The notes: generated from the letters alone by a model not told the origin. A stretch of DNA of 64,000 nucleotides from Eledone cirrhosa (GCA_964016885.1 OZ024753.1:27590001-27654000); one strand, 5' to 3'. Positions 8,653 through 49,963 are shown, counted from the stretch's first letter. Program-made: numbers and translations.

Positions 8653-9320
8653 CAGGAATTTTATATTCTTTGAATGAAAAGAACCTTCTGACGAGAATCT
8701 TTCTTTGCAACGAAGGCCGTATGGTCTCCGTTTTATTTTTGGGATTCGAAACCGATCGGTAAAGGTAACTATAGTAGGTAAAGTCAATTTTTTTAAATTT
8801 ATTTTGAAACTTTTTCATTATTTGCTAAACCTTGTTTATATTTGTTCTGGCTCGTTAATTTATTAACCCGCCATTGAACCACACTGGCATTTGGTTGGAC
8901 AATACATGCGTACCTTAGCGCCTTGTGCGTGAAGGAACACATATCCTATTACTACTACCTCCTCTAATGTTGAGAACAAATTTGGTCGTTCTGACTGCTG
9001 CTAGCGATAGCTGTGGCTAGTTTGACCTACCTCCTTCTGCCTCTATCTTTGCTTCGGCCCTTGATAAACCTGTTTCTACATCATCCACTCTCATCCCGGG
9101 AACAGTTTTGATAGCGCTAGTCTGTAATTTAAATTCAGGAATTTTATATTCTTTGAATGAAAAGAACCTTCTGACGAGAATCTTTCTTTGCAACGAAGGC
9201 CGTATGGTCTCCGTTTTATTTTTGGGATTCGAAACCGATCGGTAAAGGTAACTATAGTAGCTAAAGTCAATTTTTTAAAATTTATTTTGAAACTTTTTCA
9301 TTATTTGCTAAACCTTGTTT
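8653..9320 (+). mobile_element. ORF-less HHR tandem element (retrozyme-like, family E), 483-bp unit, about 1.4 copies
   Basis: 8653-8836 repeats at 9136-9320; homologue at 44972-45662. Confidence 0.8.
8683..8766 (+). ncRNA. Type I hammerhead ribozyme (family E); copies 9166-9249 and 45394-45477
   Basis: ACCUU-CUGACGA-GAAUCU...GGAUUC-GAAACCGAUCGGUA^AAGGU; palindromic stem III ACCGAUCGGU. Confidence 0.9.
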
Positions 9321-9502
9321 ATATATATATATATATAAATGAGAGGTATAGAGATTGTTTTAGCGAGAAGCTAATAGTATTCTATAACATATATGCGACT
9401 ATAACGTCAAGATAGGAAAAGTAGTTAACGTAAGATTTATTATATATATATATATATATATATATATATATAATATATATATTATATATATATATATATA
9501 TA

Positions 9503-12500
9503 TTTATTAAAATAACAGATTAAAGTTTAAGCAAAGAATCGCTGCTTTCCCCCTTAACGGGATCTTCTGAAACTAACAAAGTCAATCTGTAAACGCAGAA
9601 CTGGATATTTAAAAAAACGTTGCAACCGGAGGAAGACAGGAAGACGATACTTTGGTTCGTGGAAACGTTCGCTGGCAAAGAACGGGAAAAAACGAATAAT
9701 ACGTCATTAATAGGAGCGGTGAAAAACAATTACGCGCAATGACAGAACCACGTTTATGGTATAAAAGAGGTTGTAGACTAATGTTCTCTTAGGTGGTGCA
9801 TAGAGACGTTCTCTGGCAATGAACGAAAAAACGAAGATAATACGTCATATGTGGAGCGTGGAGAACAATAGCACGCAAAGACAAAACCACGTAAATGGTA
9901 TAGCAGAAGTCGTAGACTAAAATTCTAACTAGGAGACCAAATGAATCTCCGCTACAGAGTTAAGAAAAAGTAAATAAATACAATAAATACATACATACAC
10001 GCAAAAGTAAATAAATACAATAAATAAATACATACACGCAAACAAATACGTACATACAAAAGCATACGCAAAACCTTACCATAGGTATACAAAACCACGA
10101 ACATATAAATATGTGTGTGTGTGTATGCGTGTATACAATTAAATAAATAATTATATAACGTATATAAATAAATAAATACGTATATAACAAGCGCACACAC
10201 ATACCTACATATAAATACACGAATGTTCGGAGACGTAAGTCAACTAAAACAAGAAGTACACGTATACACACACCCACCATACGTACGAACCCGCATACTC
10301 ACACAGACGCAAAACTCCCGTATACACATAGCCAAACCCTAATTCGTTCTATTAAGGATTCTAACGCCGTGCACGTCCATTCCGACAAAACTGGCAACCT
10401 ATATCAAGTGAAGCGCAGTACTTACCATCAACTACTACATAATCCTGTAACTAAGGATTACCGTAAAACTAATTGGTGCGTCATCAATGAAATCAACGAT
10501 GCTGGGTTTAAAATCACATCTGATCTCAACATCCTGGACCGGACCGAACCTCTGGACCCTATTTCTCCCCACTTTACCCTGAAGGATCACAAATCCAATT
10601 TTCCGAACAACCCCTCTATTCGGCTTATTAACCCTACGAAGTCCGATTTAGGTAGACTTAGTAAAACGATTCTTGATAGAATTATACCTGAAATTAGAAG
10701 TTTGGCCTCTCTTGCACTGTGGAACAATTCTTTCGCGGTGATTGATTGGTTCAACGGCATATGTAACAAGGAACATTGCCGTTTTATCCAATTCGACATC
10801 AACAATTACTACTCCTCTATCACTTTACCACTTCTCCTTAGAGCTATCAATTTCGCTAAAACACTCACAGTGGTTAAGGATTTCGAAGTCGATGTCATCC
10901 TCAACGCCCGAAAGTCGGTGATTAATTTCGACGACTCTATTTGGATTAAAAAATCCAATAGTACCCCATTCGACGTGAGTTTGGGCGCCAGTGACTCTGC
11001 GGAGGTTACTGATCTTATTGGCCTTTTCCTTCTTTTCTCTATCAAGGACGAATTCCCCAACGCGGGCGGTGGTTTGTACCGTGACGATGGTCTTTTGACC
11101 ATGACTAAGTGCGGACCTCGTGCTTGCGACAGGTTCAGAAAAGAACTCACAGCCTTCTTTAAAGGCTTCAACCTCTCTATACAGGTTGAGGCCAATCTCT
11201 CGGTCGTTAATTACCTCGACGTTACCCTTAGTTTATTGAATCGGTTGTATTACCCGTATAGAAAGCCGAATGATACGCTTAATTACATAAGTAAGCATTC
11301 CAACCATCCTGCCAGCATAACCAAGAACCTGGTAAGAAACGTTTCTTTGATGCTTTCCCGTCTATCTACTAACGAGCATATTTTAAACGACTATTCTACA
11401 TATTACAATGAAGCTCTTGCTCAAAGTGGATTTGTCGATAAGGTAGCTTATACTGAGTACGAAAATAGACCTAGAAGAAATAGATCCCGTCGCATTTGTT
11501 GGTATAACCCACCATCTAATATGGAGGTGGCCACACCATTAGCTAAGATCTTTCTTTCCCTTATTACGAAGCATTTTCCCCCTACACATAAATATAGTAA
11601 CATTTTTAATAGAAATACTATTAAAATTTCTTACTCTACGACTCCTAACCTTGCACATAACATCACAGCTTCAATTTTAGCTAAACTACCTAGCCGTAGG
11701 AACACGTGCAACCCTGTAGTTAGTACTAACTGTAATTGTAGGAATCGGGCTGATTGCCCCATATCCGGGAAATGCCTCTCTAGTAACATTGTCTACTAAT
11801 GTAAGGTTGTAACACCCACGTCCCGTAGGGCCTACATAGGGTTAACCGCCAATAGTTTCAAGCAGCGCCTTTACATGCATACCCATTATTTTCGTTACCC
11901 TCTAAGAAGGAATATGACGTCACTTTCAGCTTATATCTGGAGTCTAAAAGACAACCACACCCAATATAAGTTACACTGGGGGATCCTAGCTAGGGCTAGA
12001 TCGTATAACGGAAATAAAAGACCATGTGACCTCTGCGCCACTGAGGCCCTGGAAATACTCTACGCCACAGACCACATCTTAAACAAAAAATCTGAGGCAA
12101 TTTCGGCTTGTAAACATAAATTGCACAAAACTTTCCTGCATTACAGCCCCACGTTATACCCTAACGGATAGTACGATCTATACGTGGATATTTTACGTCT
12201 TGATGTGGGAGCTAAGTATATGTTTTGTTTATTCCTTTACTTATTTGCATAGGTAAGTATGTATTACCCGTTTGTTTTGTGAAGGTACGTATACCTTCTC
12301 GTACGTATATTTGATTGTTTTGGCGTATAATTTTTATATATTCTGGTACATAGGGTTTGGCTATGTGTATACGGGAGTTTTGCGTCTGTGTGAGTATGCG
12401 GGTTCGTACGTATGGTGAGTAGGTATACGTGTACTTCTTGTTTTAGTTGACTTACGTCTCCGAACATTCGTGTATTTATATGTAGGTATGTGTGTGTGCT

Positions 12501-48589: not shown

Positions 48590-48762
48590 TTTATATATAT
48601 ATAAGGACGGTGCCTATATATATATATATATATATATATATATATATATATATATATATATATATATATATATATATATATATATATATATATAATATAT
48701 ATATATATATATTATATATATATATTATATATATATATTATATATATAACTAGTTCGCCCGC

Positions 48763-49963
48763 AGAAAACTTATAATGAAACAATTGTTTGGAAAGAGAGA
48801 TATATTTTAACTTTAATTATATCTCATAAAATAATACAACTGGCTTTTCCACATAATACATATTGTTAGCACCCCAAACACTTAAATTGAGTTTATATTA
48901 AATTATAACCTAATGTTTGTTGAGTGAGATGGTTACCAGTCAGAGATTAGCTTTAAACTATCTCTGTTATTGTATTAATAATTTACTCTTGATTGGCCAG
49001 AGGTGTTTATTTCCAGGTACCTTATAAATGTGACTTCCGTATTTATTACTGTCGTGCGATATTGTGGTTTTTATTGGTTGTAACTTCTCTGTTTTTTAGC
49101 CTAAGAAAATATATATATGCCTATGTATATAATTACATGCATACATTTATTTTCTAAATTAATTGAGTTCTTTACACGAGGATTTGATATTAGTTTTGAA
49201 ATAGCTAATTAACCCGCGTGTGTTTTATATTTTACTCTTAATTCGGCCGGAGATCTACATTCCCATTTGCCCTTTAAAGCATAACTTTCCGTATTTACTA
49301 CGGTAACGAGATGCGGTTTCTTATTCAGGTACAACCTCTGATTTTTGCCTGAGAAAATTTATACACGCATATATTTATTTTTTTAATTTCAATTGAGTTC
49401 TTAACACGTTGGATTGATAATGTTTTCGAAAAAACTGATTAACCCGCCTGTATATTATTTGTTTTCCTCCTTTCGTGGATCGTAGTTGTCTCCCCTTCCC
49501 GCTTAGTGACGCTATAATACTTCCTCAGTCAAAAACTGCTGGAATTTCAAATTTGCCGGTCATTCGATGCGGGAAGGAGCAACTTAACAGACATGATTTT
49601 TAACTGCGGTAAGAATTTTTTTCTTATATCAAAGCAAAGTTTAATGGGCTTCCACTGATGATTTATAAGCGCCCACCTAAATATATTCTTACATGAATGT
49701 ATATTAGGCCTCTACATAAACTGGAAATATTCTCCAAATTTGTAGAAAACTTATAATGAAACAATTGTTTGGAAAGAGAGATATATTTTAACTTTAATTA
49801 TATCTCATAAAATAATACAACTGGCTTTTCCACATAATACATATTGTTAGCACCCCAAACACTTAAATTGGGTTTATATTAAATTATAACCTAATGTTTG
49901 TTGAGTGAGATGGTTACCAGTCAGAGATTAGCTAAATTAAACTATCTCTGTTATTGTATTAAT
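48763..49963 (+). mobile_element. ORF-less HHR tandem element (family O), 981-bp unit x about 1.2, with an internal imperfect duplication of about 240 bp
   Basis: 48763-48980 repeats at 49744-49963; about 48982-49220 resembles 49232-49450. Confidence 0.8.
49650..49774 (+). ncRNA. Type I hammerhead ribozyme with large stem II insertion (family O)
   Basis: UUCCA-CUGAUGA-U-UUAUAAG...CUUAUAA-U-GAAACAAUUGUU^UGGAA. Confidence 0.88.

Follow-up and report, generated by a model that had tools for sequence, protein, structure and literature searches.

Tandem hammerhead units of Eledone cirrhosa as probable non-autonomous passengers of Penelope-like elements

Introduction

Animal retrozymes of the non-LTR kind (those lacking long terminal repeats) are non-coding, low-GC tandem units with one type I hammerhead ribozyme each, which are dispersed and co-occur with Penelope-like elements (PLEs); circular RNAs have been shown for them, and PLEs have been proposed as their mobilisers (Cervera and de la Pena, 2020, PMC7229834). 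The retrozyme-PLE link was also drawn from co-occurrence and similarity to PLE pseudo-LTRs (pLTRs) by Li, Clavereau and Pollet (2026, bioRxiv 10.64898/2026.07.22.740005), who admit minimal hammerhead motifs as well, call an element active when it has at least two consecutive complete hammerheads, and report cleavage in one of nine tested elements. Here we describe seven families of tandem units (E, G, H, L, M, N and O) from a 64,000-nt stretch of the Eledone cirrhosa genome (GCA_964016885.1 OZ024753.1:27590001-27654000, hereafter the window), which share the non-coding, low-GC tandem structure, the single type I hammerhead per unit, the dispersal and the co-occurrence with PLEs. Unlike the canonical form of coral retrozymes they carry PLE-type hammerheads with long stem II domains, and compared with animal retrozymes they reach 981 bp and are known here from DNA alone.

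Endonuclease-bearing (EN+) PLEs of the Hydra clade also have (TA)n targets, hammerheads and partial tandems, the last being a normal PLE structure, and an inverted 5'-truncated arm with a one-ended tail (Craig et al., 2021, PMC8557442); inverted PLE insertions that bear the tail on one end alone are on record in PMC3846280 too, and (TA)n targeting is found in other PLE clades (PMC8557442). The Eledone units differ from Hydra-clade PLEs in having neither an open reading frame (ORF) nor extended nucleotide homology to sampled pLTRs, and their tails measure 110-122 nt in E, H and N and ~26 nt in M, compared with 30-40 bp in PLEs (PMC8557442). In Chlamys, non-autonomous elements such as MRC1 are likewise ORF-less head-to-tail PLE passengers (PMC8557442). 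The Poseidon element PAc of the green anole resembles the Eledone units in its two internal start sites, which define the tail, its AT-rich target and the extension of both strands, and its one-ended tail is tied to these two sites (Frangieh et al., 2024, PMC11167929). However, PAc is autonomous and its start sites show no strand difference in vitro, whereas the two arms of one Eledone insertion never share a site. The origin of tandem and inverted PLE insertions and the role of their hammerheads are stated as open in both PMC8557442 and PMC11167929. In the open-access papers on retrozymes that we consulted, by listing or main text, we found no description of fixed 3' ends, of the pairing of two such ends (A and B) within an insertion, or of 5'-end footprints, nor did we find (TA)n targeting in the two retrozyme papers cited above. 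The kind of element is already known, as non-LTR retrozymes; the new part is these mechanistic footprints, which are described below together with unit anatomy, hammerhead covariation and the haplotypes shared between arms.

Results and Discussion

Fixed 3' ends in (TA)n

The seven families are very probably non-autonomous passengers of PLEs, a conclusion that follows from their fixed 3' ends in (TA)n, the pairing of sites A and B, haplotypes shared between arms, a shared tail hairpin and the lack of any ORF-linked copy among those mapped. Unit searches of the 3.0-Gb genome returned 865-2714 first-look candidates per family (these numbers are not copy numbers), of which about 40 were scored and 24-30 loci kept. 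Such searches favour full-length copies, and four extra searches with only the 3' end as query were made against this bias. Once overlapping loci had been merged, 292 arms were mapped, 289 of them with a readable 3' flank. The 3' end lies in (TA)n in 246 of these 289 arms, compared with 9-10% of random positions, and it is fixed, at one site in G, L and O and at two (A and B) in E, H, N and M. Counted in nucleotides after the predicted hammerhead cut, the sites are 80 and 188-193 in E, 82 and 204 in H, 61 and 178-181 in N, 139 and 158-172 in M, 248 in G, ~240-246 in L and 189-197 in O. The 5' ends are scattered across genomic copies and represent truncations, so that the copies are partial tandems with 5' truncation and a fixed internal 3' end, the structure of a PLE-mobilised non-autonomous element. 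Any target-site duplication is unreadable because the flanks are (TA)n.

A preliminary description of this stretch had taken the arrays as permuted and their differing phases as a sign that a PLE reverse transcriptase (RT) rolls around a circular RNA. The mapped arms show no free start phases: since the 3' ends, where RT would begin, are fixed and the 5' ends scattered, phase differences amount to truncations and a choice between two fixed sites, and are no proof of rolling copying. The two E insertions in the window are indeed out of phase, with neither end in common, yet at 3' each uses one of the two fixed sites of the family. What survives of the retrozyme-like, PLE-moved elements first proposed is that they are non-autonomous, hammerhead-bearing and PLE-mobilised, whereas the argument from permuted phases does not.

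Units and arrays in the window

Arrays were defined by masked self-alignment and unit mapping in the window, which is rich in (TA)n and PLE remains. The ORF-less, head-to-tail, non-integer arrays described earlier are real, and all seven tandem periods were confirmed, with unit lengths as first given for E (483 bp), G (606), H (554), L (622), N (523) and O (981), and 316 bp rather than about 318 bp for M. Arms in the window hold 1.23 to 2.85 units, arranged as follows.

E array 1, 8653..9324, + strand: 483-bp unit, 1.39 units, 3' end at site A (+80), in (TA)n
Hammerheads of E array 1, + strand: cores at 8688 and 9171, predicted cuts after 8761 and 9244
G array, 20299..21928, + strand: 606-bp unit, 2.69 units, single fixed end at +248
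G hammerheads, + strand: UUGAUGA cores at 20346, 20952 and 21558, stem II domain 76 nt, stem III 36 nt
H inverted arm, 26559..28135, - strand: 554-bp unit, 2.85 units, three hammerheads, terminates at site B (+204)
H direct arm, 28134..28902, + strand: 1.39 units, hammerheads at 28195 and 28749, terminates at site A (+82)
L array, 42729..44231, + strand: 622/623-bp unit, 2.41 units, U3-A8 cores at 43236 and 43859, single fixed end at ~+240 to +246
M array, 44387..44877, + strand: 316-bp unit, 1.55 units, U3-A8 core at 44676, predicted cut after 44711, stem III damaged
E array 2, 44966..45660, + strand: 31-nt inverted arm plus 1.38 units, one complete hammerhead, core at 45399
Inverted arm of E array 2, 44966-44996, - strand: 31 nt, terminates at site A
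Direct arm of E array 2, 44995-45660, + strand: 1.38 units, terminates at site B (+188)
N insertion, 45860..46768, + strand: inverted arm plus 523-bp direct units, cores at 46114 and 46637
N inverted arm, 45860-45990: terminates at site B (+181)
N direct arm, 45985-46768, + strand: 1.50 units of 523 bp, terminates at site A (+61)
O array, 48763..49964, + strand: 981-bp unit, 1.23 units, core at 49655, predicted cut after 49769, single fixed end at ~+192

The H arms are joined head-to-head; like H, both N and the second E copy are inverted insertions with two arms. The O unit has a stem II domain of 96 nt and contains an internal, diverged duplication of 249 bp. When the seven units were compared, G and L aligned at 71% identity over 245 nt and H and N at ~71%, with no further pairs aligning. 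The claim that the units lack coding capacity stands: their longest stop-to-stop frames span 47-96 amino acids, with none above 96 in any unit, tblastn of 25 PLE-type proteins gave no match, and no ORF combining RT and GIY-YIG domains is present in them. tRNA genes are absent from the window. Another tandem family, the eighth (J; period 621 bp, ~1.45 units; 30750-31661 and 29066-29647, - strand), terminates in (TA)n and has CUGAUGA near its end; neither a complete hammerhead nor the tail hairpin was found in it.

Two-armed insertions

In E, H, N and M we found inverted arms, truncated at 5', in insertions whose tail is confined to one end. Among 66 head-to-head pairs from these families, 51 combine site A with site B, none combines A with A or B with B, and 15 have one non-standard end (arm-pair and variant-recurrence counts leave out the duplicated or superseded loci L014, L024, L025, L078, L090 and L129). 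The arms overlap at their junction mostly by 0-7 nt. G, L and O gave no two-armed pair among 118 arms. Markers agreed between arms in 85 of 88 cases in E (20.9 expected), 17 of 20 in H (3.6) and 7 of 7 in M (1.8), and private variants were fixed across both arms (seven in H, three in E, one in M). We infer from these haplotypes that both arms probably derive from one RNA or one source locus, and the A-with-B pairing fits two internal start sites with extension of both target strands, as described for PAc (PMC11167929).

Hammerhead ribozymes

Each unit type carries one type I hammerhead of the PLE kind, and 17 complete motifs lie in the window arrays. The earlier statement of one hammerhead per unit thus applies to the unit type, while the second E copy, M and O have a single complete hammerhead each in the window, that of M with a G16.2-to-C lesion. 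At least two consecutive complete hammerheads, the mark of activity used by Li et al., occur in the window in the first E copy, G, H, L and N (the second N motif has a mismatch next to the core), and longer copies of the E, M and O families are present elsewhere. A relaxed scan found 24 window motifs, in arrays and PLEs, scoring at least 12, compared with ~0.2 per dinucleotide shuffle (52 kb of unmasked sequence, 20 shuffles); the L and M hammerheads scored below this cut-off and were placed from other genomic copies. Rfam gave no match at gathering score in the window, and none of its five weak matches in 42700-50000 is a hammerhead.

The core reads CUGANGA in families E, H, N and O, whose stem III is palindromic and whose stem II domains measure 50-96 nt, whereas G, L and M have a U3-A8 core, the G subfamily of the window being U3-G8. 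Canonical geometry comprises a 6-bp helix I, a 4-bp helix II and a loop 1-loop 2 contact; in its helices the Eledone set departs from this, helix I measuring 3-6 bp and the stem II domain, in six families, 50-96 nt. Like the minimal hammerheads that Cervera and de la Pena (2014, PMC4209133) described for PLEs, this set shows a short helix I and a long helix II with an additional base ahead of it, a palindromic helix III and the U3-A8 covariant, and cleavage is predicted; differences from the published motifs are the length of the six stem II domains, a stem III of 35-36 nt in G and L, and the coexistence of C3-G8 and U3-A8 in the M clade. Diverged relatives met in the fetched loci keep their stems through compensatory change: in six E-clade sequences 97.7% of cells are paired and 8 of 15 pairs show double changes (0/500 shuffles). 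Single-sequence folds give weak support on their own because they recover the three-way junction for G only, with alternative pairings in E, H, M and N and misfolding of L and O; circular-fold z-scores (-0.2 to -4.8; 6-12 crude shuffles) were not used. That the arrays are ordinary satellites spread by DNA mechanisms, their hammerhead-like motifs arising by chance, could be argued from the higher-order duplications in a few long arrays, yet it is contradicted by the fixed 3' ends, (TA)n targeting, inverted arms and covarying stems, and we regard it as extremely improbable.

The fetched loci (L001-L294) also contained 118 motif matches outside the seven families, a figure that includes overlapping loci and some chance matches. 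Further hammerhead families occur in the flanks of these loci, most at one or two fixed distances to (TA)n.

The Penelope-like partner and the tail hairpin

The preliminary description had allowed that the units might be tandem pLTRs of PLEs, and their shared architecture with the pLTR region of autonomous families would suit pLTRs or stumps of autonomous PLEs whose ORFs went unsampled; as about 40 of 693-2714 candidates were scored per search, rare ORF-linked copies could also escape. Nevertheless, the repeating unit is ORF-less, not one of the 292 arms mapped serves as the pLTR of a PLE ORF or adjoins such an ORF on the same strand without an intervening (TA) run, and no unit matches the pLTRs of 42 loci with intact or near-intact PLE ORFs, which makes this explanation improbable. 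The single direct contact between arm and ORF, an M copy at L083, has the ORF on the opposite strand.

Intact ORFs with the Hydra motifs RWK, DKT and CxCX5C are present in the genome; the clade was read from the motifs of PMC8557442 because Pfam identified no more than a weak GIY-YIG and one LINE (long interspersed nuclear element) among 10 ORFs of the window. Two intact Hydra-type families show A/B ends too; one of them has its hammerhead cut 226 nt ahead of the start codon. A nucleotide-similarity search for the partner returned low-complexity matches only, with no extended homology to the autonomous elements sampled. A tail hairpin is carried by five of the seven units (E, H, N, G and L) and by four Hydra-type PLE families of this genome; the E example is as follows.

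Tail hairpin (E), 8844..8879, + strand: R-Y-TCTR ... AT(A/T)GA-R-Y, just after site A

It lies 3-11 nt past site A in E, H, N and the two A/B-ended PLE families; in G and L it precedes the single end by ~100 nt. Its frequency in shuffles is 0.4-1.5% per sequence for a motif built post hoc from the data, and we regard it, as a lead, as a candidate protein-binding site.

Several PLE remains were seen beside the arrays. Broken Hydra-type copies (CxCX5C linker) lie at 1627-8654, a direct tandem with a short canonical-looking hammerhead, at 9431-13319 and 22579-26494, both two-armed, and at 37231-38096, 51331-52599 and 54005-55683. A PLE of another clade, with a different Zn-finger linker and a hammerhead ~200 nt after the ORF, occupies 32405-33739 and 1-573. 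Two-armed PLE-type stumps are found at 675-1100, 19236-20301 and 41476-42679, the last containing hammerheads with a 105-nt stem II domain.

Circular or linear template

Divergence within arms is lower than between insertions in all seven families. One locus (L287) holds 11.9 E units with 29 fixed variants and one singleton, near-uniform over both arms. Variants within arrays rarely recur between insertions (1 of 71 in H, 3 of 58 in G, 3 of 67 in E). In length-unbiased samples, stops at 0.98-1.02 units account for 7 of 13 arriving copies in L (p=2e-5) and 5 of 17 in O (p=3e-4). The homogeneous arrays, rare variant recurrence and stops at one unit length plausibly suit a circle as template.

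Our tentative preference is for one form of the PLE-passenger explanation, in which the units are mobilised in trans by a Hydra-clade RT-endonuclease with a unit-length RNA circle as template. The circle would arise through hammerhead cleavage and ligation, the RT-endonuclease would bind the tail hairpin and nick (TA)n, and reverse transcription would begin internally, at an invariant point that lies 60-250 nt beyond the cut. In the two-site families (E, H, N and M), a single RNA would serve the extension of both target strands, with site A used for one and site B for the other, and the resulting cDNAs would join head-to-head, while copying across the cut junction would yield arrays of 1.x to n.x units.

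A number of observations weigh against this preference. Recurrent variants make up 31 of 157 in M, and only two of seven markers are concordant between N arms. Higher-order duplications occur in some long arrays (G at L056, M at L363), which indicates that some long arrays grew as DNA. None of nine arriving G copies stops at 1.0 unit. The G/L stems covary less clearly (eight sequences, 92.1% paired, double changes in 4 of 16 pairs; 155/500 shuffles), and a G subfamily with a U3-G8 core has spread in the genome. The post hoc tail hairpin is absent from M, O and seven other elements tested, and the failure of units to match the pLTRs of the 42 PLE loci counts here as well. Uncleaved RNA is the main in vitro substrate of the anole PLE (PMC11167929). 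Finally, 14 of 39 length-unbiased L copies stop no more than 35 nt past the cut site (5.5-fold, p=7e-6; one copy beside an N gap was censored, and counting it gives 15), as do 6 of 31 in G (p=0.037, weak) and 4 of 35 in O (p=0.14, not significant); three non-standard G/O pieces were skipped, and the 5'-end tests used windows of 35 and 44 nt that were picked once the data had been seen.

The pile-up in L suggests a free 5' end on a linear RNA, although stalling at the long stem III, or TA microhomology, may account for part of it. Only slightly less probable than the circle is a linear template for the PLE passengers: the read-through transcript of a tandem array, cleaved at some of its hammerheads only, with arrays lengthened later by DNA duplication. 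Such a template would agree with the L ends, with the array expansion at the DNA level, with the use of uncleaved RNA in vitro and with family J, which is built alike and in which no complete hammerhead was found; a protein bound at the tail of the upstream unit of a linear dimer may be an alternative cause of the stops near 1.0 unit. Daughter copies should then inherit the unit-to-unit differences of their parent, yet such variants rarely recur in H, G and E, and the private variants fixed over both arms also speak against it, as does the shrinkage of arrays by truncation in every generation unless long homogeneous masters exist. If the templates were linear unit-length monomers and the RT, on reaching the cut 5' end, switched to a 3' end, either of that monomer or of a second one, both the stops at the cut site in L and passage across it would result. 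Jumps between molecules should mix haplotypes within arrays, but such mixing is rare and the cut-junction sequences are clean in mapped arrays, and we consider this route decidedly improbable.

A more specific form of the preferred circular template would place a PLE dimer on one hairpin of a single circle, with two start sites, one per target strand, and strand displacement carrying synthesis past one unit; the hairpin would then be a portable mobilisation signal for any cargo. We think this rather unlikely. If true, the L ends at the cut site would be in vivo hammerhead footprints, and the L and O ends at 1.0 unit a footprint of the start point of the circle.

Derivation of the short L copies from one truncated master was also considered and is not supported, given seven different breakpoints and no private subfamily marker. 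A 26-unit M array at L348 (G000:C1:293633500-293643499) with many partly shared variants is possibly a satellite in the making.

Other features of the window

A LINE frame, open over 1045 amino acids with endonuclease and RT domains, lies at 14082-17219 on the - strand, with related fragments at 46905-48589 and 61322-63309. A minisatellite of 91 bp in 14.4 copies occupies 56214-57577.

Conclusion

Small, young, free of ORFs and strict in their end rules, these families support the link between retrozymes and PLEs directly, at the level of insertions, and they exhibit hammerheads with long insertions that Rfam does not detect. A reconstituted assay could draw on them for templates of 316-981 nt, for putative start sites and for a hairpin that may be bound by the protein, and their end rules, together with the hairpin, render the PLE mechanism directly testable.

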